Assembly (NCBI GenBank): GCA_963666345.1
Contig: OY762721.1
Coordinates: 2,848,001 to 2,912,000 of the forward strand
Origin: Desulfatiglandales bacterium
Lineage (GTDB): Bacteria > Desulfobacterota > DSM-4660 > Desulfatiglandales > Desulfatiglandaceae
DNA length: 64,000 nucleotides
Reading direction: 5' to 3'
Shown: piece after piece, positions 40,321 through 58,192 of the stretch
Layout of the letters: each line of letters begins with the position of its first letter
Numbering within the stretch: the stretch's first letter is position 1
Made by a program: the position numbers and the translations under genes
Notes under the pieces: generated by a model
Database searches by the model: none
What the model was told of the DNA's origin: nothing
What the model saw: only the letters and a program-made list of their open reading frames with translations

Positions 40321-40396
40321 GCGGGAATAGCTCAGCTGGTAGAGCTCTACGTTGCCAACGTAGTTGTCGCGGGTTCAAGTCCCGTTTCCCGCTCCA
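40321..40396 (+). tRNA. tRNA-Gly(GCC)
   Basis: GCGGGAA/TTCCCGC acceptor stem, CTACG-TTGCCAA-CGTAG anticodon arm, GTTCAAGT T-loop, CCA. Confidence 0.97.
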
Positions 40397-40407
40397 TAAG
40401 TTAAAAA

Positions 40408-40483
40408 GGCGGCATAGCCAAGTTGGTAAGGCAGCGGTCTGCAAAACCGTTATTCACCAGTTCAAATCTGGTTGCCGCCTCCA
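40408..40483 (+). tRNA. tRNA-Cys(GCA)
   Basis: GGCGGCA/TGCCGCC acceptor stem, GCGGT-CTGCAAA-ACCGT anticodon arm, U73, CCA. Confidence 0.97.
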
Positions 40484-40921: not shown

Positions 40922-42502
40922 TCAGTCATCAAGCAGTAGCAGGGGAATCCAGGGCATATCTTTATTATCCGGTTTATCCTTGAAAAAGGCCTTTATGTTG
41001 ACATTGGTGTTACCATAGTAGTCGGTTACATCCTCGAAATCACTTCCATTGTAACTTATAAAGCTTTCTCCGGGATTTGCGCTTGTTACCGCATAGCCGC
41101 CTATGGGTCTTTCAATAGGGATAGGGGTTTTGTTTTCTTCTCCTGGGGGGTCTGTGAATTTTATCACCACGCAAAACGGATCATTTCCCGATACCTCTAC
41201 CGGTGCCGGCAGCAGGACCGTATAGTAGCCCCTGTATTCAACCTGACCGGATACGGCGGTACCCAGCAGAGGGTCTGAAAAATGAACATCAGGGGAGACT
41301 CCCGTCATGGTATCATATATCTGTATCTCATAGTCCATCCCTGATGTGGGGGCATAAAGGCCTATTCCGGTAATGGTTCCGTCCGCCGCCGGGGTAAAAC
41401 GATTCGCGCCCCAGCCGTCCCTCTGAGTGCCATAGCCGATGGTACCGGTCCATCCCAGGGGATCGTACTGAAGTATGCTGTCGAATGAAAGGAGGGAGTC
41501 ATCAGTGTCTTGATAATAGCCAAGCGATGTGAACCCTATACTCTCATCGTAATAAGACACGTAAAAGTAGCCGTCCTCCCCCCATGCGTCTCCCCAGGAA
41601 TTTCTGACTATAAAGGCGCCCGGCTGGGAGGCGCCCGTAACCTTATCATCGTCCCAGCCCACGATGGTGACGCAGTGGTTGGAGTTATTGAAGGAATCGG
41701 TCGGATCATCGTAATAAAAGGTATGGTCTGTTTCGTTGAAATTTCCCTCAGACCATTCTATTGAAGTATGAAGCGCCCCATGCCCGGAAATTGCATCCTT
41801 TATATAGTCGATGCTTGAGGCCGGGTCTGAGCGTACCGGCAGGAAAACTCCATTGTCTATGTATCGAGTAGGATCGCAGCCGGTACAATAGGAGGTGTCC
41901 GTGCAGGCCTCGGCGTCATATGGATCATCCGTCTCCATTACTGGGCCCGCATACCTTGCAAAATAGGCCAAACCCATTTCCATGTTACCGCCGTCATCCG
42001 GGCCGTATGCGAATCCATGGGCGCGGCTCAGATGCTTTTCGGAATAATCGTTTGAATTATCTGAAAGGCCGAACTCGGCCTTAAGGTGGCTTTCCACTAC
42101 ACCGTAGGTAGTAAATGCCCAGCAGGTATTACACTGCCCCTGATTCCTTACAGGCGTAAGGAGGCTGTCTGACGTGTCCCCGTCGCCATCTGGGTCCCTC
42201 ATGTCATATTCGGCGTCACCGGCTGAAGCCCCACACGGTGCGAGTCCCTCAATTTCAAGCTGTGTGTCGGGCTCATGAATTTCAGGTGCGATCGGGCCGG
42301 GTATGTATCCAAGGCCGAAACCGTTTTCAGCCGCCCCGTATGCCCTTAATAGAAGATCTTCCTCTTTCTGATGGAATGCCGTAAAGGCCGGGTTAACAGG
42401 GGCGAGCATTGATTCCGGCCTCTGGGCGCAGGCATTCTGTAAAGCCATCGGTGCTATGGTGCCTGAAATAAAGTAAAAGGCGCAAAGGATAATCAGTCTC
42501 AT
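40922..42502 (-). CDS. Secreted papain-family (C1A) cysteine protease with lectin-like domain and PWIPLLL tail
   Basis: Signal peptide; QGQCNTCWAF, NHCVTIVGWDD, RNSWG catalytic motifs; QYDPLGW; ends DMPWIPLLLLDD. Confidence 0.9.
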   Translation of the reverse strand: MRLIILCAFYFISGTIAPMALQNACAQRPESMLAPVNPAFTAFHQKEEDLLLRAYGAAENGFGLGYIPGPIAPEIHEPDTQLEIEGLAPCGASAGDAEYDMRDPDGDGDTSDSLLTPVRNQGQCNTCWAFTTYGVVESHLKAEFGLSDNSNDYSEKHLSRAHGFAYGPDDGGNMEMGLAYFARYAGPVMETDDPYDAEACTDTSYCTGCDPTRYIDNGVFLPVRSDPASSIDYIKDAISGHGALHTSIEWSEGNFNETDHTFYYDDPTDSFNNSNHCVTIVGWDDDKVTGASQPGAFIVRNSWGDAWGEDGYFYVSYYDESIGFTSLGYYQDTDDSLLSFDSILQYDPLGWTGTIGYGTQRDGWGANRFTPAADGTITGIGLYAPTSGMDYEIQIYDTMTGVSPDVHFSDPLLGTAVSGQVEYRGYYTVLLPAPVEVSGNDPFCVVIKFTDPPGEENKTPIPIERPIGGYAVTSANPGESFISYNGSDFEDVTDYYGNTNVNIKAFFKDKPDNKDMPWIPLLLLDD

Positions 42503-42578
42503 AAAAGAAAACCTTATTATGGATGGATGGAAAAGCCCCGGTAAATGGATGCCGGTATCTTGGAAACATTAAAATTTA

Positions 42579-42920
42579 GGATCATCTCCCGATTAGTTGG
42601 TGTTAAACAGGGCTAAGCAATGAAATCCTTCTTATTTAAGCGGCTGAGAGCTAGTAGGGTTCAAGGATTCCAGTGTTCCATTGAAACGGCGGATAAAACC
42701 CCTAAAGCATTACAAAGATTTAAAGCTGTTGCAGAAATCCTGCGAATGCCTTTCAGGTATATAGAATAAATGAAAAATTCTCAAATAACATGAGGTACAC
42801 AGAGATCGATAAATTGCTAAAAATGCCTATAAAGTCTTTAGAAAACAAACACTTGACCCCTTGACCCCTTGACCCCTTGGGTCCTTGGACCCTCTTGGCC
42901 AACTAAGTTGGAGAAGGACC
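42579..42920 (+). mobile_element. Family A MITE-like element, copy 2
   Basis: Same TIRs; perfect 8-bp TSD AAAATTTA at 42571-42578 and 42921-42928. Confidence 0.85.
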
Positions 42921-43317
42921 AAAATTTAAAATGCCTGTTATCGGATTTTCAGGTAAAGGAAAAAGGTATTTTGCGGAATAGTATAGACATTCCCTCAGAA
43001 TCTGTCACCACAGAAAATGTGAAATTTGTCTGTTTAGACCCCTGTCTGCCGTTTCTTAGGAAATCTTTATCCTGGTGGATATAGATATGGGCCACAAAAA
43101 AGAAAACGGGGCGGTCGTATGTCATTTAACCTGTCGATATATCAATAAAGAAAATTGGTGCTACCTGATTTTGTTAAGTGTTTTATAGGCATTAATTTGG
43201 TATATATTCCAAATTAATTTTAAAGAAGATAAAAGAGGTGCTGTTGACATTTAATGAAGAGTTGTGATACCTGATAATATCTCAAAATATTCATATAGTT
43301 TCCAGCATTTGGTTTTA

Positions 43318-43400
43318 ATCACACTGTGAAAAAGCCAAACCCCGAGCAATCGAGGGACGGAAAGCCACGGGTCTTGAAAAGACAGCCGGGTTGCCGAAAG
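43318..43400 (+). ncRNA. c-di-GMP-I (GEMM-I) riboswitch, copy 1
   Basis: GCCAAACCCCGA-GCAA-TCGAGGGACGGAAAGCCACGGGTC...GACAGCCGGGTTGCC: GNRA loop and conserved core. Confidence 0.88.
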
Positions 43401-43419
43401 GTGGCCCGGCTTTTTGTTT
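43384..43419 (+). terminator. Riboswitch expression-platform terminator
   Basis: AGCCGGGTTGCC-GAAA-GGTGGCCCGGCT plus TTTTGTTT; 5' arm shared with the aptamer. Confidence 0.8.
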
Positions 43420-43708
43420 GTGCGCCCGGCAGGGCGCACTCACTTGGAGGTGAAAGTCCTCTACACGCCCGTCAGGGGGAAGTGTTAGCTGAACGGCAAC
43501 TGCGTCACCGTGAGGTGAGGTGGGGAGGAAGCTGAAGGCAAAGCGCTGGCCCGACGAACAGGAATCGCATATTAGGCGGTCATGCCGGATGAGGAGGCAA
43601 ATATCTCTAAAGTCCAATACCTGACCGGAAGGCATGGGCGTATATGCGGCGGGCATAAGCGTGAAGGTGGGTGTGCATTACCCGGGGAGACCTCATGGTA
43701 TGCCGTGA

Positions 43709-45235
43709 GTGCTACTTCTGCCGAGAGGCAGAGGGATGTGCCGTGAGGAGTCAGCCGAGGCCATAGTAGTCCAAACGACCATGGGTGAAGGGCCGAACCT
43801 TATGTTAACGACAGGGTCTTTAGCTGTGCGAGCGAGAGTAGACATAGAAGGTTATGCTGAGATGCATGGCGCTACAGGGAAGTGTACCGGGCGGAACCCG
43901 GGAGTGGTCTTTGGTAGTGTGTCAAAGCGCCCATTGGCGGAAGGGAACCCTGTTGACGAGCAAGCGCAACTGATGGAGCGAGTGGTCGAACGCTCGAACA
44001 TGCAACAGGCCTATCGACGTGTGAAGGTAAATAGAGGAGCACCAGGAGTTGATGGTATGAGTACGGATCGTCTTGGTGCATATTTATGTAAACACTGGCC
44101 TGAGATCAAGCAACGATTGTGTAAGGGCAGTTACAAACCGATGCCAGTAAGGCGAGTACAGATTCCAAAGGCAAATGGTGGAGTCCGCCTACTTGGCATT
44201 CCAACTGTATTAGATAGACTTATTCAGCAGGCATTGCATCAGGTGTTGAGTCCATTGTATGAGCCGGGATTCTCGGAGCACAGCTATGGATTCCGTAAAG
44301 GTCGCAGTGCTCATCAGGCGGTGGTTGCAGAGCAGAAGTACCAGCATGAGGGCAAACGCTGGGTAGTTGATATGGACCTGGCGCAGTTTTTCGATGAAGT
44401 AAATCACGACAAACTGATGTCTCGATTAGGAGCGAAGGTCAGGGATCAGAGGGTAAAGGGTTTGATCCGTAGCTACCTTCGAGCTGGGGTGCTTCTGGGC
44501 GGAGTGGTGTCAGTTCAGAGCAAAGGAACGCCGCAAGGCGGTCCTATCTCTCCCCTGCTGTCCAACATTGTGCTGGATGAACTGGATAAGGAGTTGGAGA
44601 AGCGAGGCCATAGGTTCTGCCGCTATGCCGACGACTGCAATATCTACGTAGGCAGTCGTCGAAGCGGGGATCGTGTAATGGCGTCTGTGACACGTTTTGT
44701 TGAGGAGAGGCTGAAGCTGAGGGTAAACAGGCAAAAGAGTGCTGTAGCAAGGCCATGGCAGCGCAAATTTCTTGGTTATACGTTCAGCTGGCACAGGAAG
44801 AGTCGAATCCGTGCAGCCGCAGAATCGATAAAGCGGCTCAGAGCTAATTTGAAGGCGTTGTTCCGTAAGGGCAGGGGCCGCAATGTAAAGCGGTTTATCC
44901 AGGAGGAACTCAACCCTGTTGTCAGGGGATGGAGTAACTACTTCAGACTGTCGGAGTTTCTAGGATTTGCAAGGGAACTTGATCAGTGGGTTCGTCGTCA
45001 CCTTAGATGTATTCTATGGCGACAATGGAAGAGACCCTGGAAACGGTTTCAGATGCTTATGGATTTGGGACTGTCTGAGCAACAGGCCGCTTATTCTGCT
45101 TTTAATCAGAGAGGGGCATGGTTCAATGCAGGTGCAGCGCATATGAACCGGGCCATACCCAAACGTTACCTTGATCAGCTTGGACTAGTATCTACGCTCG
45201 ATACACTGCGCAGGCTTGGAGGAAAATTAACTTAA
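43709..45235 (+). CDS. ltrA: Group II intron reverse transcriptase/maturase; true start probably downstream (e.g. 43973)
   Basis: [40 protein letters not shown]; no endonuclease domain. Confidence 0.93.
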
Positions 45236-45297
45236 GGAACCGCCGTGGTACGTGGACCGTATGCCCGGTGGTGTGAGCTTACTATTACCCATAAGTA

Positions 45298-46770
45298 TCA
45301 TAGCTGATCCGCCAGTTTCAAGCCTTCACTCAGATCTGCAAGACGCTTCCATCCTCTCCATAATGTGATAGTACCAGGAGGCCCATCGTTTTTTCGGGCT
45401 AGGTGACCTCCTAGTTTTGCAATCCAGATGACTACAATACCAATGGTTGGTGGCTTTTTCGGTATAGGTTTGTTTATATTTGCATGCAGGAAAAGGGCTT
45501 TCCACTCCTGATCGGTAAGGAAAGTTGAGCAGGGTGTTGTCGGATCGGTACGAGCGATCAAGGTAATCATGAAGATCCTCCAAGCTACAATGCTCATAAC
45601 TGTGAGGTATTTTGCCAGCCGATCGGCATGCCCTAGCCGACATGATTCGACCCTAAAACCGGACTTTAAGACCTTGAAGTACATTTCAATTCGCCAGCGT
45701 AAGCAGTACCACAAAACTTTTTCATAAGCATCTTCATACGACATGACTGGAAGATTGGTCAGGAGCATCCACTCGATAGCTTCCTCGCTATCAGGCGGAT
45801 TTGTTTCTATAACATAGACTGCGTGCATCTCAATGTCTGGAAGTTTCTCAGTGCTGTGCCTGATACTATTGCGGGGAGGATTGAGGGTAAAAGAGCCGAA
45901 ACGTACAGAGACCATCGCGGTGCGTGCTTCCCTTTCTTTGGCATGCTTCGACTTAGACCTTTTCGCGATTTCTACCACGTAAGAACCTGAATCAGGCTGT
46001 TTTCGCATATTCTCCCAAAGTTTTTCGACATTCTTTTCTGCATAACGGGATTTACGATTTATAATCCTATCTACGTTTGCTCGAACGAGGACAGGGGCAT
46101 TGATTTGATGGCTACGCATAAAGAAATCGTATAGATCGGCTTCTCGATCGCAGACTGTGACGATTCGGGTACAACCTGTTAATTCCTTAGTGTTTTCTAA
46201 TGCCTCAAGCCATCTATAGCTTTCCTTTTCCTCTATCGGGAGATTGGCGTGAGGTTTTGCTTTTTTGTTATCCTTTTTCCGGAGTTTCCGTGAAAATATT
46301 TTTTGATCCAACAGTCCGAGTGGGAGGCCTTTAGTTGTTACAGCCAGACATGTATGCATTATCAGGCCGTTGGAATAGATATTTTTCACGTTTTTACCCT
46401 TCTTTAAAGACATCTTCCCGAGTCCTTCGGTCTTCGGATGGTCAGTATAGACAAAATAACTGGTATCTTGGAGTGCAAGAACCGTTTTGTGTTCCTTAGT
46501 ACGCTGAGCTGTTTTACATCGGTGGGCCGCCAACATCTTACCAACCTCAACTTTGTTGTTTTGAAAAAAACGATAAGCAGCTTTGGTCTCTGCCCAATCC
46601 ACGCATGCTTGGTTGATGGGGCTCTCTGGAGCATCCGAAAATCTATCACACAGCTTAATCAGCCTTGCATCGAGTCTTTTATCTCCGAGCTTGACCTCTG
46701 CAAACTCTTCCGCCGCCCAACTTGATCTATTTTTTGGGTTCATTGAACGCCTCCCATTAAAAGTTGACAT
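45298..46770 (-). CDS. IS4-family (IS50/Tn5-like) transposase
   Basis: LGDKRL, LQDTS, CDREAD, YCLRWRIEMYFK (YREK motif), GPPG..TLWRGW. Confidence 0.93.
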   Translation of the reverse strand: MSTFNGRRSMNPKNRSSWAAEEFAEVKLGDKRLDARLIKLCDRFSDAPESPINQACVDWAETKAAYRFFQNNKVEVGKMLAAHRCKTAQRTKEHKTVLALQDTSYFVYTDHPKTEGLGKMSLKKGKNVKNIYSNGLIMHTCLAVTTKGLPLGLLDQKIFSRKLRKKDNKKAKPHANLPIEEKESYRWLEALENTKELTGCTRIVTVCDREADLYDFFMRSHQINAPVLVRANVDRIINRKSRYAEKNVEKLWENMRKQPDSGSYVVEIAKRSKSKHAKEREARTAMVSVRFGSFTLNPPRNSIRHSTEKLPDIEMHAVYVIETNPPDSEEAIEWMLLTNLPVMSYEDAYEKVLWYCLRWRIEMYFKVLKSGFRVESCRLGHADRLAKYLTVMSIVAWRIFMITLIARTDPTTPCSTFLTDQEWKALFLHANINKPIPKKPPTIGIVVIWIAKLGGHLARKNDGPPGTITLWRGWKRLADLSEGLKLADQL

Positions 46771-46824
46771 TTGTATAGTAGACGTATTATATACGTCTAC
46801 TATTACGATAGGGAGGTGTCAAGG

Positions 46825-47136
46825 ATGAATCCTGTCAAAAAACGAAATGATCTTTTAAAAAAATTAGCCCAATTCCCTGAATTTGTTCGCGGGTCGATTA
46901 CAAGCGTTTGTTCCACATGCAACAGAGCGAGATGCATATGCTCAAAAAAGTCATCCCGGATGGCATATCGGCTGACCTATAAGGATAGCCAACAAAAAAC
47001 ACGTAGCGTTTATGTTAAAAGAGACCAGTTAACCAGAATGCGAAAGATGATCGCCAATTATGCCCGACTAAGGAAACTGATCGAGCAACTTGTTGAGGCA
47101 AATATTGAGGCTTTTAAGGAAGAAACTCGGCGATAA
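46825..47136 (+). CDS. Small basic Cys-rich protein inside the IS (DUF6788-like)
   Basis: GGGAGG RBS; RGSI..CSTCNRARCIC; LTYK....TRSVYV; lies wholly inside the TIRs. Confidence 0.6.
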   Translation: MNPVKKRNDLLKKLAQFPEFVRGSITSVCSTCNRARCICSKKSSRMAYRLTYKDSQQKTRSVYVKRDQLTRMRKMIANYARLRKLIEQLVEANIEAFKEETRR

Positions 47137-47403
47137 AATCGTCTAGACTTATGGGTAATAGTAAGGTGGTGTGAGAGAGGGAGGTCGCGAGGCCTCCCCC
47201 TACTCGATTGTGCTTTGGAGATGTATGTTTTTCGAATAACGCTGAATCACCTTTAACAAAACGGATTAATCCAAGGCAAATAACGGCGTATATAATAGGT
47301 CTCTAATGCTAATAGGCATAAAACAGCAATACAGAGTGGATGTTTGGATCTAACTGAATCGAAGGACTAATCCACTGGCATGCCAGTGGCATGAATCGGG
47401 AGA

Positions 47404-50400
47404 TTGAAAATGGTACGTGTTAGGAAATGGATGCTGTTATCACTTTCAGCCGTAATTTTGTTCTCTCTAGTGTTCTATGTGAATGCTGAACCTGTAGCGG
47501 AAAAAATGGCTCAGAGCGCAGCGCAGTCTTTCCTTCATAAAGAGCAGAGAACTCTGCCCAAAATGGTGACTAAGGCAAAGGCTGAGCATTTTGTCAGCGA
47601 TATGGCTAGTGGTCTTACTATTGGAGAGCTTCATCCTATAAAAGATAGCCATGGTGAAATACTTGCATATATTCAGGAACTGGAACCTGAGGGATTCATC
47701 ATTACTTCAGCCGATGATAGCATAAGGCCGGTTCTTGGTTTTTCGTTCTCAGGAGAATTCTCTTATGATGCACACAATCCATTGCTTAATCTTATAAAGA
47801 CAGATACCAAAACCCGCCTAAGACTTTTGTCTTATGGTGGGGAAAAGGCGCAAAATATGATTAAGTTGAGCGGAGAACAATGGATAGCCGATACTTCATA
47901 TACGTTAGAACTGGACACATCCCTACTTTCAAAGTCAATCTCAACCCTGTCAGAGACTATATGGGGTGACGAAAACGGTTACATTCAGACAGAATGGAAT
48001 CAAAGAAATCCCTGGAACGCACAATGCCCATATAAAGTCGAAGACGATATCGGTGGCTCTAGACGACCTGTTGGGTGTGTAGCAACGGCAACAGCACAGA
48101 TAATAAACTTCTGGGAATACCCAAAGAGTGTGTCAATTTCTGATAATGACTATATAAATATAGATGGCACATCGCACTACATAAGTACATCTTCAGGTTA
48201 CGGGCTACCATCAGTGTCAGAACTTAGAAGCGAAATGGGATCACTCCTTTATGGAGCTCCCGATACTGATGAACAAGCTTATTTGTGTCTTACCGCAGGG
48301 CTTAAACTTCATATGAACTACAGATCTAAAACAACTCAGCATGGCGGTATTGAATACGGCTCTGCAGCTAGTACCTCAAGTGTTGGAGAAGTCCTCACGA
48401 GCAATTTTTTGTATGGAAGTGCCGATATGGATAAATGGGGTAATGTTTGGTCGGAAAATTACAGCACAATTGTTGATAATATGAAAAATGCTCAGCCTGT
48501 TCAAATCGGAATCAAGAATTCAGGAAAGACAGGCGGGCATTCCGTAATCGTAGATGGATATCGTGAGGGGGACCATTTTTTTCATGTAAATTTCGGTTGG
48601 TCAGATTCTGGTAATTCTAATACATGGTACAATATTCCAAACTTTGAGCCACAACCATATTGGGAGGATTATTATTATGATGTAGTGCACACCGTTGTAT
48701 TCAATATTGCCAAATACCAGGGGTGGAACCAATATGGTGCAAATGCACAAAATACATTTGGAACTATCTATGCGGCACCATATAAGAAAAACGAAATCAA
48801 ACAGAAATGGCGTGCTACCTGCCCATCTGAATTTGCCTTCAGGCATATCGCGATCGGAACTTCCAATCATATTTATGCCGCTGTTTCCCCTAACGCTTCT
48901 ACCGGCCACTCGTTTATATATGTAATAGATCAATTTGGTACTAAATTAAAAGAAATCGAAATAAATCGGGACGGCAAAATTGATTTTATGTGCCAAGATG
49001 AAGCCGGAGACCTATTTGTAGCAGTTGAGGATGGATACATCTATCGAGTTGATCCAGAAACAAGTTCAGCAGTTCAGATTTTTGAAGAACCTTATGGGGG
49101 ACAAATCAATACGCTCAAGATTGATAAAGATGGTTGGCTTTTCGCTGTTACGTTTGATCGCGTTTATGCCCTTACACGGTCTGGCACCTCTCGTTGGCCC
49201 TCCCCATTTGTCGTACCGTCAGGATCAATGTTCATGGGGAGTCGGTCGATTCCAGCGATTGACGTGTCCCGGCAGCGAATTTATGCTACTTACTACAACA
49301 GCACCACGGATCATGCTTACCTCGTGGCGATAAATAGGCTAAACGGGGAGATCGTGCAGGTACGAGATTTTGCGGCAATATCAGTGCCACTTATGAAAGT
49401 TCCTTCCATTGGCCCTGATGGTACGGTCTACATCGGTATGCCAGGCATACTATATGCTTTGAATCCGGATGATTTTCTTGGCACTCCTAAATGGACAAAG
49501 TCACTGCTTATTAGCCATACGCCTGCGGTAGGCCGCGATGGTACTTTATATTTCCCTTACTGGGAGCAAATTGCCGATATATGGTACAATAAATTGGGCG
49601 CTTTTGATCCATCAAATTGTGCGGAGCGATGGAGCATACCATTTCAACTAGACACCTCAGAAGAGTCTATATTCCAACCCTATATCGGCGGTAACGGTGT
49701 TGTTCTTTTCACAATAGAGCACGACGGATCACCTAAAACATACACTCTGCATGGATACAAGGACAACGGCTCAAGCTCTGAGGAACTATGGGATTACAAT
49801 GCAGGAAGCTCTGGAGGTAACTATGCATTCGGCCCTGGTCGGACAGTGTATGCATGGGGAATGACAGGTTTGGCGAAAACAATCTATGCGCTTACCGATG
49901 GGGAAATTGGTGACCCCTACGGAGCAGGGATGGATTTTGAGAACAATAATACTCCTATTCCTGCATCTAATCCGAGCCCTGCAGATGGTGCCGTGGAGCA
50001 ATCCTTCACAAGTGTTCAACTTTCGTGGAGTTGCTCTGATCCTGATGGGCATGATCTGAAATATGATATTTATGGCTGTGCCTTAGTGGAGGGAGAAGAA
50101 GCGGCTATGGTGCCTCTGGTAACTCAGTTAACTGAAAATTCATACACTTTGTCGAATTTGCAAGGAGGAACGGAATATCTTTGGATGGTCGTTGCTACTG
50201 ACGGGCAGGCCATTGCAGAAGGACCTACATGGAGTTTTACAACAGAAATAGAAGATTTATGCCCCGATGATCCAAACAAAACAGAACCCGGGATATGCGG
50301 CTGTGGAGTACCAGATACAGATACAGACGGAGATGAAACGGCCGACTGTATAGATGCCTTTCCAAGTGATCCAACTGAATGGGCTGATAACGATAATGAT

Positions 50401-50616
50401 AATATAGGCGACAATGCTGATACAGACGATGATGATGATGGTATGCCCGATGTATGGGAAGAACAATATGAAGGTCTGAATCCCCTCGTAGATGATGCTT
50501 CCGATGATCTGGATGGTGATGGAATCCTAAATCTAACAGAATACCAGAATGGAACAGATCCCGCTCGGTTTAATTCGAAGTATCTGCCCTTTATACCATT
50601 ACTTTTGGGGGATTAG
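47404..50616 (+). CDS. Secreted streptopain-family (C10) protease with propeptide, beta-propeller, Ig/FN3-like and TSP3-like repeats, and PFIPLLL tail
   Basis: Signal peptide; FIITSADD..PVLGFS; WNQ..PWN, GCVATATAQI, GGHSVIVDGY, HVNFGW; ends KYLPFIPLLLGD. Confidence 0.9.
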   Translation: MKMVRVRKWMLLSLSAVILFSLVFYVNAEPVAEKMAQSAAQSFLHKEQRTLPKMVTKAKAEHFVSDMASGLTIGELHPIKDSHGEILAYIQELEPEGFIITSADDSIRPVLGFSFSGEFSYDAHNPLLNLIKTDTKTRLRLLSYGGEKAQNMIKLSGEQWIADTSYTLELDTSLLSKSISTLSETIWGDENGYIQTEWNQRNPWNAQCPYKVEDDIGGSRRPVGCVATATAQIINFWEYPKSVSISDNDYINIDGTSHYISTSSGYGLPSVSELRSEMGSLLYGAPDTDEQAYLCLTAGLKLHMNYRSKTTQHGGIEYGSAASTSSVGEVLTSNFLYGSADMDKWGNVWSENYSTIVDNMKNAQPVQIGIKNSGKTGGHSVIVDGYREGDHFFHVNFGWSDSGNSNTWYNIPNFEPQPYWEDYYYDVVHTVVFNIAKYQGWNQYGANAQNTFGTIYAAPYKKNEIKQKWRATCPSEFAFRHIAIGTSNHIYAAVSPNASTGHSFIYVIDQFGTKLKEIEINRDGKIDFMCQDEAGDLFVAVEDGYIYRVDPETSSAVQIFEEPYGGQINTLKIDKDGWLFAVTFDRVYALTRSGTSRWPSPFVVPSGSMFMGSRSIPAIDVSRQRIYATYYNSTTDHAYLVAINRLNGEIVQVRDFAAISVPLMKVPSIGPDGTVYIGMPGILYALNPDDFLGTPKWTKSLLISHTPAVGRDGTLYFPYWEQIADIWYNKLGAFDPSNCAERWSIPFQLDTSEESIFQPYIGGNGVVLFTIEHDGSPKTYTLHGYKDNGSSSEELWDYNAGSSGGNYAFGPGRTVYAWGMTGLAKTIYALTDGEIGDPYGAGMDFENNNTPIPASNPSPADGAVEQSFTSVQLSWSCSDPDGHDLKYDIYGCALVEGEEAAMVPLVTQLTENSYTLSNLQGGTEYLWMVVATDGQAIAEGPTWSFTTEIEDLCPDDPNKTEPGICGCGVPDTDTDGDETADCIDAFPSDPTEWADNDNDNIGDNADTDDDDDGMPDVWEEQYEGLNPLVDDASDDLDGDGILNLTEYQNGTDPARFNSKYLPFIPLLLGD

Positions 50617-50623
50617 GCAGTAC

Positions 50624-50676
50624 TGTAAATGGTCGTTTAAAAGTGAGCCATTTTGGGTCGTGAAAACTGAGTCACC
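50624..50676 (+). mobile_element. Isolated IS21-like terminus
   Basis: TGTAAATGGTCG..AAAAGTGAGCCA..GGTCG..AAAACTGAGTCA: TG start with internal direct repeats. Confidence 0.45.
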
Positions 50677-50681
50677 TTATC

Positions 50682-51599
50682 CTAATCTTCCAAGAGCAAC
50701 TGTAACCATGGCATAAATTTAGGTTCAGGCGGATCAACCGGAAGGCTCAGATCAGATAAATCCGGGACCCCATCTCCGTCTGTATCATTGGTATCCTGAA
50801 TTATAACCAGCCACTTCTGGTAGTCCGGCCAGGAAGTATCAAGATCACCATCAGAAAGCTCAACTAATGCAGTATATGTATTGCCATCTCGTGAAAAAAT
50901 TGTGGCAGGGAATGATTCCACCGCATTTATTCTGATGTTATCTTCATCTATTATATCGTAAGTGGCTTCATAAGTTTCTTCAGATTGCATCAAAGTCGAA
51001 GTATATGCAACTGTGATACTGTTACTTGTTTTTGAGTAATCAAGAGTGCCAGATAGTTCTCCAACAGTGTAATTTCCTGACATACTCATATCACCGGCAT
51101 AATAGGTATTATGCGCCGTCAAACTGTATGTTCCTATAGCGGAATTTGCAGCTTTGCTAAGAGATCCGCTTATGAGCCCGCCTGTATTATTTTGGCTGTA
51201 CCAATTCCCTGTGATATTTTTGTTAAACGGCATTGATTTTTCACAGACATCATCAATACCATTACCGTTAACGTCATCAGAACCAAGATTAAGGGAAATT
51301 TCACCGTAATCACCGACAGTATAAGTATCTACTATCATTAAATAATCTGTTTTATATAGACTTCCAACCTTTTTTAATTCCTGACTGTAATAATAATATC
51401 CGTTATCATAATCATATAACGGCATAGAGTATCTATTACCGTCATAAGTAGTAAAGTATGTTTCAAGTAGATGGTACTCTATATAAGAGGAACATTTTTC
51501 AAGGCTGATGGAATACGAAATCCCGCCAATACTTGCAGTATTGGCAAACGCTGAAGACGTGACAATTAAAACCGCGAATACCAAGCTGAAGTATTTCAT
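50682..51599 (-). CDS. Hypothetical secreted Tyr/Ser/Thr-rich protein with PWLQLLL tail
   Basis: Signal peptide ending AFA; DxDGD motifs; ends KFMPWLQLLLED. Confidence 0.8.
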   Translation of the reverse strand: MKYFSLVFAVLIVTSSAFANTASIGGISYSISLEKCSSYIEYHLLETYFTTYDGNRYSMPLYDYDNGYYYYSQELKKVGSLYKTDYLMIVDTYTVGDYGEISLNLGSDDVNGNGIDDVCEKSMPFNKNITGNWYSQNNTGGLISGSLSKAANSAIGTYSLTAHNTYYAGDMSMSGNYTVGELSGTLDYSKTSNSITVAYTSTLMQSEETYEATYDIIDEDNIRINAVESFPATIFSRDGNTYTALVELSDGDLDTSWPDYQKWLVIIQDTNDTDGDGVPDLSDLSLPVDPPEPKFMPWLQLLLED

Positions 51600-51954
51600 T
51601 TTTTATGCTCCAAAACACAAGTCTATTTCTTTAAGCTGGATTGAAAACAAGTGGCTTCTTCTGCCCTATTGTAACCGTCCACTAAAATAGTACCAGCAAA
51701 AAGTGGAGGATTGCGTTACCCCTGAGACTGTGAGTCGGAGCGAAGCGGCGCTGGTATTTTTAAACTGTTGTTGTAGCTATGGTAAAGTCGTCGCTGCCTG
51801 ATTTTATTATGTTTTTTATAGGTAACATTTTGGTATATATTTTTACATTGATTTCAAAAAATACGAAAAAGGTGTTATTGATATTTAATGAATAATTATA
51901 GTGCTTAATATTCCGTCTCAAAATATTCATATAGATTCCAGCATTTGGTTTTAA

Positions 51955-52035
51955 TCATACTGTGAAAAAGCCAAACCCCGAGTGATCGAGGGATGGAAAG
52001 CCACGGGTCTTAAATAGACAGCCGGGTTGCCGAGA
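51955..52035 (+). ncRNA. c-di-GMP-I riboswitch, copy 2
   Basis: GCCAAACCCCGA-GTGA-TCGAGGGATGGAAAGCCACGGGTC...GACAGCCGGGTTGCC, followed by the same hairpin. Confidence 0.82.
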
Positions 52036-52310
52036 GGTGGCCCGGCTGTCTGTTGCTCAATGCCATATCTTTAATTTCTTAATAGTATCGATTCAATGCT
52101 TTAGCGGTTTTATCCGCCGTTTCAATGGAGCACTTGAATCCTTGGCCCCTTGAAACCGGGAACCCGCTGCGAAGCAGTGGGACTGAGCGAAGCGCAAGCG
52201 GAGCAAAGAAACCGGGAACCCGCTGCGAAGCAGTGGGACTGAGCGAAGCTAAGCTAAGCGAGGGCGAAGAATCCTACGAGTTATCAGCCGCTTAAATAAT
52301 AAAGATTTCT

Positions 52311-52756
52311 GGATCATCTCCAAAAGAGTTGGTCTAAATGAAGGATTCGAGGGTTCAAGGGGCCGCGGGTTCGAGTGAAAAGCTTAAAGATCATAGGCGG
52401 TTAAACGTTATGCAAAAATCGTATACACCTTGTTTGCATATGTATAAAGAAACGAAACGTCTTTTTAAAGATGAGCAATAGGGTCTTATCCGAGGTTTCC
52501 ATACCATGGAATATCGTCTGAGAATATGTGAGATTTCTCTATATTGCATATGGTTCAGGCTGTGAACCGGAAATCCTGATCCATGATACCGGGTGAGTCG
52601 GGTTATCCTTGAAACTGGGAACCCGCCCCGAGCTTGTCGAGGGGTGGGACTGAGCGAAGCGTAAGCGGAGCAAAGAACCCTTGAACCCTTGAACCCTTGA
52701 ACCCTTGAATCCTGGAACCCTTGGACCCTCTTCGACAACTAAGTTGGAGAAGAACC
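52311..52756 (+). mobile_element. Family A element, copy 4, nested in copy 3
   Basis: TIRs GGATCATCTCCAAAAGAGTTGG / ACAACTAAGTTGGAGAAGAACC; perfect 8-bp TSD AGATTTCT at 52303-52310 and 52757-52764. Confidence 0.85.
52383..52575 (+). pseudogene. Decayed four-helix-bundle (23S rRNA IVP/Avd-like) gene
   Basis: LKDHRRLNVMQKSYTPCLHMYKETKRLFKDEQ*GL, then EYVRFLYIAYGSGCEPE in another frame. Confidence 0.7.
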
Positions 52757-52876
52757 AGATTTCTTTATTCAGCCCTGTTTAACACCAACTAATCGGGAGG
52801 TGGTCCTAAAAAGGTAATTGAGTAGATATTGGTGGCTGTGTATAACGGAAATATTCAGTATCTACAACCACTTAAA

Positions 52877-52948
52877 CTAACGTTCACCCATAAAACAAGG
52901 TTTATGGTTTAAGGCTGTCAGCAATCAGCTTTCAGCTGTCAGCAAAAC
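52877..52948. repeat. Truncated family B repeat
   Basis: CAAGGTTTATGG..GCTGTCAGCAATCAGCTTTCAGCTGTCAGCAAAAC matches about 16476-16521. Confidence 0.55.
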
Positions 52949-53045
52949 TGATGTTTACCCCATTTAGTGGACACCCAGAAAAGATAAATGTAAAATTAAC
53001 ACATAGGAAGTGTGTCCATGGAAAATGGGAGAAGACGCCGCAGGC
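52949..53045 (+). mobile_element. IS3-family left-end remnant
   Basis: TGATGTTTACCCCATTTAGTGGACAC...AGGAAGTGTGTCC-ATG (MENGRRRR); no transposase follows. Confidence 0.45.
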
Positions 53046-53346
53046 CCTATGATCGGTAAGAATTGTGTGATAGGCTCGACCCCATGATTCCCGATGCATC
53101 CGGTGACATATAACCACTGTCAGGCCGGTTCCCAAAAATTTTTGTCGGATGCTGATTCCTTGAATCAAAATGATCCCGGGCCTCGGGCGTTGCCTTGGGC
53201 CCTTATATTATTCGGAGAATAGCCCACTTTTTAAGAGGCCATCATTTTTAAATGGGCACGGCTCGCAATGATATGGGCAGAGCAAGGATTTCTTGAATAG
53301 CGGGTAAATCAACGAAATCATAAATCCACATTAAGAGGTCGCAGCC

Positions 53347-56300
53347 TTGCGCAAGTATACCGTTTATCTCTGTCTTGCTATGTTGATGCTGCTGTTTGGG
53401 GCGGAAATCGTTTTTGCCGCCCTGAAAAGCGCTGAAACAAGTGTTCCGGGCCAAAAGGCTGTGATAGTGGCCGGCACGGAGGCGAGCGTACTCATCCGTT
53501 CGCCTGAGACAGAGCATCTGTTTGACGCAAGCGACACCGAAAGCACCGGGGTCATAATCATTCAACCCGGTCCCGCAGCTGCGCCCGGAGATTCCTTACC
53601 AGGTGAAGACTATGCATTGTGGGACTGGAGTGGTTCGATATCTATTCCTGACGGTCCGGACGGTTCGTGGGTAGGCGTCAACAACACACCGACATCGCCG
53701 CCCGATGGGTGCCAGGTAACGAAAATCACAATTCGCCACGCGGTGACCCACACCTATATCGGTGATTTGGAGTGCAAGGTATATAACGACAGCGGGCACT
53801 CATGGATGGTTCGTGACAATGAAGGGGTCTCTGCGGATGACTTTGATGAGACCGAGACTGAATACACGATCTTTGACGGGGATAATCCCAAACAGAACTG
53901 GTCCTATAGTGTTCGCGACACGGTCGAAGACGATACTGGTACCCTCGATATCGTGCAGCTATATGTTTACTATGAAACCACGGAGCCGGACATCCGAGTT
54001 GAGCCCACGACGCTCAATTTTAACGACAACCCTGAGCCCTCCATCTCTTCGTTCAAGTCGACACTTGCTCCGCTGGAGTTTGCAGCTACGGCAAGCGACG
54101 GTTCTCTGTCTGTAACCATCGAAAGCGGCGCCTTGAACATAAACCCCGCCGGTGATTATGTGGCCTTAAGCATGGATGGCTATGATACGCGCATGTCGCC
54201 CGGCGATCCCATGCTCCCTTTGCGTGTCGTGCGTATGGCCCTGCCGCCGGACGCCGATCTCGATACGGTGACTGTCTCCCATTCAGTCCTTGCCGCAAGA
54301 GTACTGGACTCTACCTATTCGGTTGCCCCTGCACCTCCTATGGCGACATGGGAGGGAACCCAGACGATCATCGATTGGGGCGAGGGCAAGGACATCGTCG
54401 ACGGCCGCAACATGAACGTCTACGGCTCGGACGCCTTTTTCGTGGCCGAATCCGTCAAACCCGAGCCTTACAGCCGGTTGCGTAAATGGAAGATGGCCCG
54501 GTTTTTCTTTTATCCTGTCCAATATAACCCGGTCACCGGCAAACTGCGCGTTATCGATAGTGTCAAGGTCGATATTACGTACGACCTTGAGTCCGAAGCT
54601 AAAAGTGCGCTGAACTCCTCGTCGGCAGATGACGGCATGGAAGCCGCGGCTTCCCTACTCATCGATAACTATGACCAGGCCAAGCCCTGGTACCTCTATG
54701 AAGCTAAACTAAGCCCATCGGTTGCTTACGATTACGTCATCGTAACCACCGAGGACATTTTCGATAACGCTTCTTACCTCGATGACTTTGAGACCTTTAA
54801 GGAGAACCAGGGTTATAACGTGGCGACTGTCACAGAAAGCGGTTTCTACACATCGGTCGGTGGTTCGAGCAGTGACTCGGGCTGGGGCGGAGGCACGGGC
54901 GATGCGGCGGCCGAGAACATTCGATCCTGGCTCCAGGGCAACTACTTATCCCTGGGAATCGACTATGTCCTGCTTATTGGCGATCCAAGCCCCGCCTCCG
55001 GGGACGTGCCGATGAAAATGTGCTGGCCGCGTAAGGGTGCTACGATCGAACCGGACTATGATGAAGCGCCCACGGATTACTATTATGCTGAACTTACCGG
55101 AAACTGGGATCTGGATGGCGACGGAGATTATGGGGAATACGACGGCGATTTCGGCTCGGGTGGCATCGACACGAATGTGGAAATCTATGTCGGCCGCATT
55201 CCCGTTTACTCCTCATCCATGACCGCCCTCGACGGCATCTTGCAGAAGACCATAGACTATGGAACCGAGTCAGGTGATCTTGGCTGGCGTGAAAAGGTTC
55301 TGCTTCCCATGGAGCCGTCCGATTCGTCAACTCACGGCTGGCCCCTGGCCGAAAACATCCGCAGCGACTACGCCAATCCGGCGGGTTGGGATTCCTATCG
55401 CATCTATGATGAGGATTACGACAAGAGCCCAGAGCAAACGCCGTGCAACATGACCAACGTCCAAAACGAATGGCAGAACTTCTACGGGCTTGTTACATGG
55501 TGGACACACGGCTCGGAGACCAGCGCTGCAGACGTCTTTAGCAGCAGCCTGTGCGGCAATCTCGATGACGATCATCCAGCCTTCACGTTCCAGTGCTCAT
55601 GCAACAACGGCTATCCTGAAAATACCGGCAATCTCGGCTACTCGTTGCTCGAAAACGGTGCCATCGGAACGATTTCCGCAACACGCGTTTCGTGGTACTA
55701 CGTAGGCGACTCAAACTGGGAAATGAGTGGCGGCAACTCGTACATGGCCGACAGGTACTCGGAAAAGATCATCAACACGGATCGATCCGGTAAGGCCCTC
55801 TTCGATATGAAGATGGCAGCATCTCACAGTGATATGGACCAATGGATGAATTTTCTGGTTTTTAATCTCTACGGCGATCCCGCTCTGAAAATTGACGACA
55901 CCGGCGGCTCGACTCCACCCGGAGATGGTGAATTCGGGATCTACAACGACGGAACGGATACGCTTGAAGTCAGCAGCATTACTAAAAGCAAGAGCTGGCT
56001 GCTCCTTGATACCGCAGGACCTCTTACGATCTCAGAGGGCGAAAACCATATTGTTTCTGCTTCGGTGGATTGGGACCAGGTTCCGGCAGGAGGGGATTCC
56101 GATACCATTCAGGTCAATTCAAACGATCCTGACGAGGGGACGGTCAACGTCGCCGTGACTGCTATTCAGCCTCGCAGTTTATCGGTCTCATCGAGCAGCG
56201 GCGGCTTGGTTTCACAGCCTGGCGAAGGTTATTTTGAATACACATTGGGGGCTGTAGTCTCTCTTGTGGTATTGGCAGATTCTGACTGGCACTTTGACCG

Positions 56301-57735
56301 GTGGACAGGGACTGCGGTTGATGCGGGCAGGGTAGGGGACCCGGATTCCGGGGCTACGACGGTCACGATGGATGGTGACTATACCCTTTATGCAAACTTT
56401 GCCATTGATCAGCATGAGCTGCAGATATCGTCAAGCGCAGGGGGATCGGTTACGACGCCGGGTGAGGGCGAGCTGCATTACGATCACGGGACAGTGGTAA
56501 CGATTGAGGCGACAGGTGATGCCAACTTTCATTTTGTAAACTGGACGGGAACGGCGGTTGACGCGGGCAGGGTAGGGGATGCGGATTCCGGGGCTACGAC
56601 GGTCACGATGGATGGTGACTATACGCTTTATGCGAACTTTGCCATTGATCAGCACGCGCTGCAGATATCGTCAAGCGCAGGGGGATCGGTTACGACGCCG
56701 GGTGAGGGCGAGCTGCATTACGATCACGGGACAGTGGTAACGATTGAGGCGACAGGTGATGCCAACTTTCATTTTGTAAACTGGACGGGAACGGCGGTTG
56801 ACGCGGGCAGGGTAGGGGATGCGGATTCCGGGGCTACGACGGTCACGATGGATGGTGACTATACGCTTTATGCGAACTTTGCCATTGATCAGCACGAGTT
56901 GCAGATATCGTCAAGCGCAGGGGGATCGGTTACGACGCCGGGTGAGGGCGAGCTGCATTACGATCACGGGACAGTGGTAACGATTGGGGCGGCATCTGAT
57001 GCCGATTTTCATTTTGTAAACTGGACGGGAACGGCGGTTGACGCGGGCAGGGTAGGGGATGCGGATTCCGGGGCTACGACGGTCACGATGGATGGTGACT
57101 ATACGCTTTATGCGAACTTTGCCATTGATCAGCACGAGTTGCAGATATCGTCAAGCGCAGGGGGATCTGTTACGACGCCGGGTGAGGGCGAGCTGCATTA
57201 CGATCACGGGACAGTGGTAACGATTGAGGTGGCATCTGATGCCAATTTTCATTTTGTAAACTGGACGGGAACGGCGGTTGACGCGGGCAGGGTAGGGAAC
57301 CCGGATTCCGGGGCTACGACGGTTACGATGGATGGTGACTATACCCTTTATGCGAATTTTGCCATCGATGATGAAGATGAAGACGGCGTTCCGGATTTAA
57401 CTGATAATTGCCCGGTGACACCGAATTCGGATCAAGCGGACTCTGATGGAGATGAGGTCGGGGATGCCTGCGATCAATGCCCTGATGATTCCAACAAGAG
57501 TAATCCAGGCGTTTGTGGATGTGGAGAACCTGATACTGACAGCGAACCTGATGGAATGGTTGATTGCTGGGAATGGGAATACGGTCTTGATCCTTCAGTG
57601 AATGACGCTGGAGAAGATATTGATGGGGATGGATTTTCAAACCTCATAGAATTTCAGCGAGGAACAGATCCCGGTGATTATTATTCTACCCCTCCAATCG
57701 TTATGCCCTGGATACCACTGCTTTTGGGTGATTAG
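53347..57735 (+). CDS. Secreted gingipain-family (C25) protease with P-domain, propeptide, InlB B-repeat-like units, TSP3-like repeats and PWIPLLL tail
   Basis: Signal peptide; HTYIGDL; PGDPMLP; YVLLIGD, TDYYY, VGRIP, THG, CSC, NLYGDP; ends VMPWIPLLLGD. Confidence 0.9.
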   Translation: MRKYTVYLCLAMLMLLFGAEIVFAALKSAETSVPGQKAVIVAGTEASVLIRSPETEHLFDASDTESTGVIIIQPGPAAAPGDSLPGEDYALWDWSGSISIPDGPDGSWVGVNNTPTSPPDGCQVTKITIRHAVTHTYIGDLECKVYNDSGHSWMVRDNEGVSADDFDETETEYTIFDGDNPKQNWSYSVRDTVEDDTGTLDIVQLYVYYETTEPDIRVEPTTLNFNDNPEPSISSFKSTLAPLEFAATASDGSLSVTIESGALNINPAGDYVALSMDGYDTRMSPGDPMLPLRVVRMALPPDADLDTVTVSHSVLAARVLDSTYSVAPAPPMATWEGTQTIIDWGEGKDIVDGRNMNVYGSDAFFVAESVKPEPYSRLRKWKMARFFFYPVQYNPVTGKLRVIDSVKVDITYDLESEAKSALNSSSADDGMEAAASLLIDNYDQAKPWYLYEAKLSPSVAYDYVIVTTEDIFDNASYLDDFETFKENQGYNVATVTESGFYTSVGGSSSDSGWGGGTGDAAAENIRSWLQGNYLSLGIDYVLLIGDPSPASGDVPMKMCWPRKGATIEPDYDEAPTDYYYAELTGNWDLDGDGDYGEYDGDFGSGGIDTNVEIYVGRIPVYSSSMTALDGILQKTIDYGTESGDLGWREKVLLPMEPSDSSTHGWPLAENIRSDYANPAGWDSYRIYDEDYDKSPEQTPCNMTNVQNEWQNFYGLVTWWTHGSETSAADVFSSSLCGNLDDDHPAFTFQCSCNNGYPENTGNLGYSLLENGAIGTISATRVSWYYVGDSNWEMSGGNSYMADRYSEKIINTDRSGKALFDMKMAASHSDMDQWMNFLVFNLYGDPALKIDDTGGSTPPGDGEFGIYNDGTDTLEVSSITKSKSWLLLDTAGPLTISEGENHIVSASVDWDQVPAGGDSDTIQVNSNDPDEGTVNVAVTAIQPRSLSVSSSSGGLVSQPGEGYFEYTLGAVVSLVVLADSDWHFDRWTGTAVDAGRVGDPDSGATTVTMDGDYTLYANFAIDQHELQISSSAGGSVTTPGEGELHYDHGTVVTIEATGDANFHFVNWTGTAVDAGRVGDADSGATTVTMDGDYTLYANFAIDQHALQISSSAGGSVTTPGEGELHYDHGTVVTIEATGDANFHFVNWTGTAVDAGRVGDADSGATTVTMDGDYTLYANFAIDQHELQISSSAGGSVTTPGEGELHYDHGTVVTIGAASDADFHFVNWTGTAVDAGRVGDADSGATTVTMDGDYTLYANFAIDQHELQISSSAGGSVTTPGEGELHYDHGTVVTIEVASDANFHFVNWTGTAVDAGRVGNPDSGATTVTMDGDYTLYANFAIDDEDEDGVPDLTDNCPVTPNSDQADSDGDEVGDACDQCPDDSNKSNPGVCGCGEPDTDSEPDGMVDCWEWEYGLDPSVNDAGEDIDGDGFSNLIEFQRGTDPGDYYSTPPIVMPWIPLLLGD
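56180..57370 (+). repeat. Intragenic tandem repeat, 240-bp (80-aa) unit, about five copies
   Basis: GCCATTGATCAGC recurs at 56401, 56641, 56881 and 57121; variant at 57361. Confidence 0.95.
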
Positions 57736-57805: not shown

Positions 57806-58192
57806 TCAATGCCGGGGTTCCCCTTTCCACCAAAAGTCGTTGTTGTCCACAGGGTCATAACACTTCTTTTTCCCATAAACATAAATCTCAGGTGAATATT
57901 TGAGCTCATCTCTGCCGCATCTTATTAGCCGATCACAGGTCATTAGCCAACCCAGGATGATGCCATGCTCCTTAAGGCAATGCAGGCTGTAGGAGGAACA
58001 ACCGGGGTACATGGGACATTCCGATCTTTTCACTGCCTTTAGGTGATTTAAAGGCCCCTGATAAAACCGGATAAGTGCTGTCAACGGGTTTAAGCATGCC
58101 GGTGAACCCTTTCCTGCCGCGCCCTTGTGGGCACAGCCTGAAAGGCAGAGCAGGAAAAGCAGCGTAAGAGAGAGGGTCTTGAAAATTCCCAT
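57806..58192 (-). CDS. YidD-like protein with N-terminal lipoprotein signal
   Basis: IRFYQ, CPMYPGCSSY, GWLMTCDRLIRC, YDPV; lipobox LSGC. Confidence 0.75.
   Translation of the reverse strand: MGIFKTLSLTLLFLLCLSGCAHKGAAGKGSPACLNPLTALIRFYQGPLNHLKAVKRSECPMYPGCSSYSLHCLKEHGIILGWLMTCDRLIRCGRDELKYSPEIYVYGKKKCYDPVDNNDFWWKGEPRH

Follow-up and report, generated by a model that had tools for sequence, protein, structure and literature searches.

A stretch of 64,000 nucleotides of a Desulfatiglandales genome (GenBank assembly GCA_963666345.1, contig OY762721.1, positions 2,848,001 to 2,912,000), referred to below as the window, encodes four predicted secreted proteins that end in the same short tag, with the consensus [ML]P[WF][LIM]xLLL(G/E/L)D. 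The tag is real and, within the literature and the models searched, undescribed. It is portable and free of a transmembrane helix: it ends unrelated signal-peptide proteins, replaces other tails, lies outside the protein fold and tolerates flanking sequence on both sides. It is very probably a genuine sorting or anchoring signal of some kind.

Re-reading the open reading frames (ORFs) of the window confirmed the four endings of the first-pass annotation. The first protein, encoded on the reverse strand at 40922-42502, is a C1A papain-family peptidase with a lectin-like domain (Pfam) and a signal-peptide-like N-terminus; its tag, DMPWIPLLLLDD, is encoded at 40922-40960 and is followed by the stop codon, as are the other three. 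The second, on the forward strand at 47404-50616, is a C10 peptidase with an I69 propeptide, an fn3 domain and an acidic TSP3-like module, assigned by Pfam and module comparison, and ends in YLPFIPLLLGD (50581-50616). The third is a predicted exported protein of 305 residues with an acidic, proline-containing linker, encoded on the reverse strand at 50682-51599 and ending in FMPWLQLLLED (50682-50717); it has no Pfam or NCBIfam family and no usable match in the ESM Atlas. The fourth, on the forward strand at 53347-57735, is a C25 (gingipain-family) peptidase with a P-domain, five InlB-B-like repeats and a TSP3-like module (Pfam), and ends in VMPWIPLLLGD (57700-57735). The cores had been described as non-homologous, and the C1 protein with its lectin-like domain, the C10 peptidase, the protein without a family and the C25 peptidase are indeed unrelated. 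However, the C10 and C25 proteins have in common an acidic TSP3-like module of about 120 residues just before the tag (E 1e-19), and they are therefore not fully independent. The tag is the sole sequence common to the C1 and 305-residue proteins. The four genes encode it with different synonymous codons, so that it is not a DNA repeat.

Distribution and anatomy of the tag

The genome consists of one contig of 4.16 Mb with 3397 gene-like ORFs. It contains a fifth copy of the tag on a C10 paralogue (genome positions 3583833-3586670) and a looser sixth copy with the end ILLLLLGD (1965001-1966482). The regular expression P[WF][LIM]xLL[LF] matches nine times in the 3397 ORFs, and five of the nine matches have at most 3 residues between them and the stop (binomial P 2e-8). 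All six tagged ORFs pass a crude rule for signal peptides that is passed by 581 of the 3397 ORFs (P 2e-5). When 404 signal-peptide-like proteins of the genome were ranked by acidity, eight of the top ten ended in the tag, in its loose variant or in the sister tail FPW described below; GspK and a barrel-like protein made up the ten. The median net acidity of the tagged proteins is 0.07, compared to -0.008 for the signal-peptide-like proteins of the genome.

Because the regular expression was derived from the tagged proteins themselves, a scan of GTDB constitutes the independent test. The back-translated core M-P-W-[LIMVF]-P-L-L-L-x-[DE], a pattern without a stop codon, returned 83 stretches, and the 77 listed loci that were read gave 79 distinct matches. 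Among the listed matches, 50 of the 54 in records with Desulfo-, Syntroph-, Delta- or Thermodesulfobacteriota titles end within 2 codons, and 13 of the 25 in other records end within 4 codons. Of the 55 listed matches that are preceded by at least 100 residues, 50 have the stop at most 2 codons on and 52 at most 20 codons on; the other three are internal and come from records of Novosphingobium, Bacteroides and Saprospiraceae. The enrichment at C-termini, like that in signal-peptide proteins, is thus as the first-pass annotation led one to expect. Terminal copies outside the phylum were found in Gammaproteobacteria, Anaerolineales, Balneolales, Paceibacterota and Eubacteriales records; several of these are on short contigs and may be mis-binned.

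A 20-position profile of the tag, which recovers five copies in this genome, was run against 301 genomes of the phylum, with at most 29 candidates scored per genome. Matches at E<=0.05 were obtained in 42 of the 301, most of them single and borderline, and eight genomes were verified by reading the ORFs. In the cultured strain Desulfosarcina alkanivorans PL12, all six ORFs with profile matches end within 3 residues of the match, and in another Desulfosarcina 14 of 15 matches are within 2 residues of the stop. There are between 1 and 15 copies per genome, and 103 distinct tagged ORF ends were collected overall. Among the 48 complete tagged ORFs from other genomes, 36 pass the crude signal-peptide rule. 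The tag had been called lineage-specific. It is not confined to a narrow lineage: it extends over at least four Desulfobacterota families, is present in named Desulfosarcina records as well and occurs sporadically in records of other phyla. Orphan tags were also seen in short frames, apparent remnants of decayed tagged genes (L163 at about 3880-4020, L330, L359 and L361-L363).

Position counts were taken from 49 rows, about four of which are probably chance matches and whose core letters are imposed by the search pattern. Position -3 is K (24) or R (7). Further on, M (33) or L (9) is followed by P, by W (44) or F (5), and by L (39), I (6) or M (4). A variable site (P in 19 rows, M in 13, Q in 6) precedes L-L-L, and the end is G (25), E (7) or L (5) followed by D (28), E (7) or N (7). 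The hydrophobic core has 8-9 residues. The highest 19-residue Kyte-Doolittle mean over 48 tails is 1.42 and none reaches transmembrane hydropathy, which bears out the earlier statement that the tag is too short for a transmembrane helix. The tag ends in D, E, N or G and has no basic cluster. An acidic end, another feature noted at first, is usual but is not required, as endings in G-N, N, G-G and Y exist. The variable positions +3 and +7 are four residues apart, and this spacing suggests that the tag could be helical. The summed interface hydrophobicity of the core is about -3.7 kcal/mol, or -2.2 kcal/mol with the acidic end. In the AlphaFold 2 model of the C1 peptidase (pLDDT 88.8) the core ends at residue 509 and the tail, residues 511-526, has values of 50-64. 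The tail is thus appended to the fold rather than being part of it.

The position of the tag is flexible. It is followed in some proteins by C-terminal extensions of 6, 13, 17 or 18 residues, and one internal copy precedes a domain of 198 residues. At a single locus (L101), in a gene whose start looks frameshifted, a copy directly follows a signal-peptide-like stretch, and the gene upstream of this N-terminal copy ends in ALPLLLGD. Judging from these copies, a free carboxyl end is not needed. The original description as a C-terminal tag therefore holds for most copies, but in view of the extended, internal and N-terminal ones the tag is better called terminal than strictly C-terminal.

Cargo, slot exchange and sister tails

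The cores of 60 tagged proteins fall into 27 clusters, one of which has 32 members chained together by common modules. Pfam assignments for 36 tagged proteins include S8, C10 and C13 peptidases, transglutaminase, FG-GAP, LRR, RCC1, NHL, Kelch, PKD, CARDB, LamG, SBBP, GSDH and β-helix domains. To judge by these domains, the cargo is a typical extracellular repertoire of unrelated enzymes and adhesins. A TSP3-like pattern is found just before the tag in 38 of the 60 proteins and is missing from 22; the tag can directly follow a lectin-like, SBBP, NHL, Kelch, PKD or FG-GAP domain, or a module of 50 residues.

Homologues of the tagged proteins carry other tails in the same place. Among 120 homologues of the C1 peptidase, three end in the tag (the window protein included), four end in ITPIIMLLLGE and two more have related tails recognized by eye. 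Others end in a type IX secretion system (T9SS) C-terminal domain (CTD) or in dockerin, SLH, DUF4214 or GGGCF tails. A second comparison was made with 150 representatives of a small module, P0241 (L105:6115-6432, reverse strand), which in Desulfosarcina carries almost only the tag. Their ends were PWxxLLL in 19, variants of P[AI]hxLLL in 7, LPAI in 2, [FY]LPL[VI] in 15, a transmembrane segment with a basic tail in 9, dockerin-like in 21, T9SS-like in 2 and unclassified in 75; tagged ends are over-represented in this set because the query profile contained the tag. PEP-CTERM-like tails also occupy this place in homologues. As the ends of homologues exchange the tag with such tails, the tag occupies the slot of known sorting and anchoring signals. 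The first-pass remark that T9SS-type domains can stand at this position agrees with the homologues of both the C1 peptidase and the P0241 module. The P0241 module itself is a secreted module of about 50 residues that ends in GFW and bears many anchor tails. It has 629 relatives at E<=0.001 and no NCBIfam family above cut-off. Its resemblance to the tip pilin PamT of the candidate phyla radiation (PMC13278184) is below cut-off (E 1e-6) and concerns the module, not the tag.

Several other tails resemble the tag. Two ELWxxDGT-repeat proteins of this genome end in FPWxxFLPA (FPWEIFLPAFIKK). Their genes lie in tandem on the reverse strand at 2478776-2480164 and 2480583-2481974 (loci L195 and L196), and the proteins end in FPWEIFLPAFIKKSTP. 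Among 77 distinct matches to the FPW pattern that were read in metagenomes, 64 have at least 80 residues upstream and 24 of these 64, on other exported proteins, stop within 15 codons; the remaining long-frame matches are mostly internal, in one membrane protein family. The pattern was found in none of 60 relatives. Homologues of the ELWxxDGT proteins end in [FY]LPxV in 7 of 120 cases, and there are intermediates between the tail classes, such as FLPAIYLLLL. A recurrent tail, [FY]LPL[VI]x[RK], ends the exported proteins P0132, P0137, P0153, P0170, P0175, P0177, P0230, P0269 and others. Its two named matches are from Anaerolineae/Chloroflexota, and it appears to be of Chloroflexota type. The sister tails FPWxxFLPA(I/F), [FY]LPL[VI]xR/K and P[AI]hxLLL are like the tag in being short, proline-containing hydrophobic ends in the same slot, and the FPW class co-occurs with the tag in this genome, but they differ from it in consensus. 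The literature searched held no published description of them.

The tag itself is not catalogued either, as the first-pass annotation had supposed. Searches with 52 tag peptides gave no Pfam or NCBIfam match at E<=10, 20-residue queries being insensitive, the ends of the full proteins likewise match no model, and no description of the motif was found in the literature searched, whose scope stopped short of subscription journals and bioRxiv supplements. The closest known systems are GlyGly-CTERM with rhombosortase and the type II secretion system (T2SS) (TIGR03501, TIGR03902), PEP-CTERM with exosortase, and MYXO-, JDVT-, Synerg- and CGP-CTERM. These also use a short motif that ends unrelated signal-peptide proteins, occurs several times per genome and is exchangeable between homologues. 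Thus, of the features of such tripartite signals, a motif near the C-terminus, several copies per genome and signal-peptide proteins are present in the tag, but a transmembrane helix, a basic cluster and a co-occurring exosortase or rhombosortase are not; nor does the tag need the C-terminal place. Seventeen tagged genomes were profiled for the enzymes and for SprA and GspK. Rhombosortase above cut-off was found in none of the 17, and exosortase had no match in 5 of the 17, this genome included; sortase and myxosortase (CPBP family) were not searched for. The type A CTD of the T9SS (TIGR04183, PF18962) is alike in occupying the same slot in homologues and in ending similar cargo families (C10, C25), but it is a domain of 72 positions compared to about 11 residues for the tag. 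SprA was found in 0 of the 17 tagged genomes and in both Bacteroidota controls. Neither CTD model matches the four window proteins; a CTD search of the whole genome was empty, but its control was silent too. The β-signal of the β-barrel assembly machinery is a terminal aromatic residue on an amphipathic strand, whereas the tag ends in D, E, N or G and its cargo consists of soluble domains. The tagged proteins gave no dockerin match, and cohesin, considered as a receptor for the tag, was rejected with a match in one of five genomes and none in this one. A lipobox-like pattern, as expected for lipoprotein anchoring, is present in 2 of the 48 complete tagged ORFs.

The type II secretion system and the possible role of the tag

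The tagged proteins probably leave the cell by the T2SS. Like known T2SS substrates they appear to be Sec-exported, folded extracellular enzymes, with signal peptides by the crude rule and a T2SS in the genome. GspK was found in 16 of the 17 tagged genomes, compared to 182 of the 301 genomes of the phylum. In this genome the T2SS operon starts 763 bases past the last tagged gene, with the ATPase gene gspE (58499-60193, reverse strand; TIGR02533 above cut-off) and the secretin gene gspD (60209-62326, reverse strand; TIGR02517 above cut-off). The operon extends past the end of the window; its GspK was identified by PF21687 and its other genes were labelled by inspection. The N-terminus of GspE scores 37.9 bits against the c-di-GMP-binding motif NF053729, for which the cut-off is 38. 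A tagged gene is 1.7 kb from gspE in genome G154, and in genome G015 another follows gspD on the same strand at a distance of 1.4 kb. In three genomes, then, tagged genes and T2SS core genes are at most 2 kb apart, compared to a crude expectation of 0.24 for 103 ends (P 0.002).

A YidD-like gene (window 57806-58192, reverse strand) and a gene for a TPR-containing membrane protein (genome 2921680-2922615, forward strand) flank the T2SS operon, and in G154 (L190:3862-5217) genes of these two kinds stand side by side, adjoining an MSHA-like operon. The secretin of the MSHA-like operon of this genome is split over two frames (2068996-2070625, reverse strand) by a frameshift or a sequencing error.

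The tag might act in the T2SS step itself, as a non-cleaved hydrophobic docking peptide that is possibly used afterwards for surface retention; this proposal, drawn from sequence comparisons, is preferred to its rivals but put forward tentatively. After Sec export the protein would fold in the periplasm, leaving the segment M-P-W-L-x-L-L-L, of 8-9 residues, exposed. The segment would be bound non-covalently, and without cleavage, by a hydrophobic groove or a membrane interface at the T2SS, and this binding would commit the protein to export. Once outside, the segment may also retain the protein at the cell surface or within the matrix. An unlikely extension of the proposal is that the T2SS recognizes the tag as a linear peptide that can be transplanted, and that the tag belongs to a superfamily of short, proline-containing hydrophobic tails (PWxxLLL, PAIxLLL, FPWxxFLPA, [FY]LPLV), which would label extracellular proteins in several phyla without a sortase. 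If this were true, fusing 11 residues to the N- or the C-terminus would suffice to have a periplasmic protein exported.

A number of observations weigh against a role of the tag in the T2SS step. In the systems studied, linear T2SS signals have been excluded and the signals are held to be conformational, according to a review (PMC9251779). The co-occurrence with GspK is weak because GspK is common in the phylum and in the tag-holding families (5/5, 3/3 and 9/10), giving 0.018 over 8 genomes and 0.13 over 4 families; a profile for GspD-N0, matching 272 of the 301 genomes, was uninformative. Most T2SS-positive genomes showed no tag, and an Anaerolineales chromosome has one perfect tag and neither a secretin nor GspK. 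The adjacency was tested post hoc and with the discovery genome counted in; if that genome is left out, the figure is 2 versus 0.24 (P ~0.02, calculated by hand). The tagged cluster of this genome also abuts tRNA-Gly and tRNA-Cys genes, and a group II intron and an insertion sequence (IS) lie inside it. In the large assemblies G094, G354 and G355 there is no tag within 100 kb of a secretin gene. Two subtypes of T2SS are represented among the tagged genomes. GspC-PDZ was dropped as a universal reader of the tag, since inspection of the T2SS operons of G094 and G154 showed no homologue of it. No neighbouring gene family recurs among 813 ORFs clustered from 78 tagged loci. AlphaFold 2 assigns the tail no confident structure, and the crude signal-peptide rule rejects 12 of the 48 complete tagged ORFs, several of them apparently broken or mis-started. 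A complex prediction of the tag with the periplasmic part of GspC and GspD N0-N2 scored 0.00 in both runs, but its controls did not fold and it counts neither for nor against. The first-pass reading of the tag as an export or surface-anchoring signal is supported, as an inference, by the enrichment and the slot exchange.

The tag may instead serve only after secretion, as an anchor or a sticky patch that inserts into the outer-membrane surface, binds a matrix polymer or associates with itself, with the folded protein deciding export; we consider this somewhat improbable. The exchange of the tag with dockerin-like and other anchoring tails agrees with such a role, and so do the Ca-binding TSP3-like module that often precedes it, the copy in a genome without a secretin and the control by c-di-GMP described below, which suits surface or matrix proteins. 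That three hydrophobic variants coexist in one genome suggests that a physical property counts here and not an exact code, and the spacing of positions +3 and +7 would place both on one face of a helix. However, the interface energy calculated above is small when set against proteins of 50-200 kDa, K-A-M-P-W is more strongly conserved between families than a membrane patch would require (although this is partly imposed by the search patterns), and the tagged genes adjoin T2SS operons in three genomes.

It is unlikely that a dedicated enzyme or carrier of the periplasm or outer membrane cuts or modifies the tag as PorU or sortase-type systems do. Several features given for sorting signals in one study (10.1101/2023.06.07.544157), namely a place near the C-terminus, several copies per genome, a signature and signal peptides, are found here, and according to the same source GlyGly-CTERM cargo requires the T2SS for reaching the surface. 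But the tag lacks a transmembrane helix or basic cluster by which an intramembrane protease could be offered it; N-terminal, internal and extended copies exist; the occurrence of exosortase, rhombosortase and SprA does not follow that of the tag; and there is no recurrent neighbour gene and only 1-15 copies per genome. Least probable is the absence of any sorting role, the tail being the hitch-hiking end of a mobile TSP3-like cassette spread by domain shuffling: the frequent TSP3-like pattern, the module common to two window proteins and the orphan tags in short frames speak for it, but more than a third of the tagged proteins lack the module and carry the tag directly after varied other domains, the codons differ where the residues are kept, and the tag is conserved over several families.

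Possible control by c-di-GMP and implications

Two c-di-GMP-I riboswitches (Rfam RF03167) are found on the forward strand of the window. The first, at 43325-43399 (70.2 bits), is 4.0 kb upstream of the C10 gene, and the second, at 51961-52035 (66.7 bits), is 1.3 kb upstream of the C25 gene. The third and last match in the genome is located some 70 bases upstream of the C10 paralogue with the fifth copy of the tag. All three c-di-GMP-I matches of this genome, for which 150 of 312 candidates were scored, precede tagged genes. The control of the C10 gene may be uncoupled, because an intron and a transposase separate it from its riboswitch (window 43325-47136). The tagged set of this genome, made up of proteases and adhesin-like proteins, may be under the control of c-di-GMP as one batch. 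The relatives weigh against a specific link: in five of them 4 of 28 riboswitch matches precede tagged genes, including 0 of 8 in D. alkanivorans, and most of the 20 regions that were read lead other surface proteins (PEP-CTERM-like, dockerin-like or pilin-like). Since the riboswitches of relatives mostly precede such proteins, the link would be to c-di-GMP-controlled extracellular proteins generally. Two riboswitch-led exported proteins of genome G055 (L427:1260-2711 and the first gene of L431) end in G[LY]GYW[VI]KV...C[ST]WTY, possibly another terminal anchor.

The remaining features of the cluster provide context only. The tRNA-Gly and tRNA-Cys genes (40321-40483, forward strand) form its left edge and are a possible integration site. 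The group II intron and the IS occupy 43504-46770, with the reverse transcriptase of the intron at 43709-45235 on the forward strand and an IS4/Tn5-type transposase at 45298-46770 on the reverse strand. Around the second riboswitch (51700-52700) there are short repeats, with GCGAAGCAGTGGGACTGAGCGAAGC occurring twice, and runs of AACCCTTG.

The choice of substrates by the T2SS is an open question in which linear signals have been held to be excluded, and a movable tag of 11 residues on unrelated cargo makes this question directly testable. Whatever its reader, the motif is a new marker of the extracellular proteome of sulfate reducers and their kin. It indicates that sorting or anchoring tails can be free of a transmembrane helix and can sit at either end of a protein, and in this genome it ties a set of secreted proteases to control by c-di-GMP.

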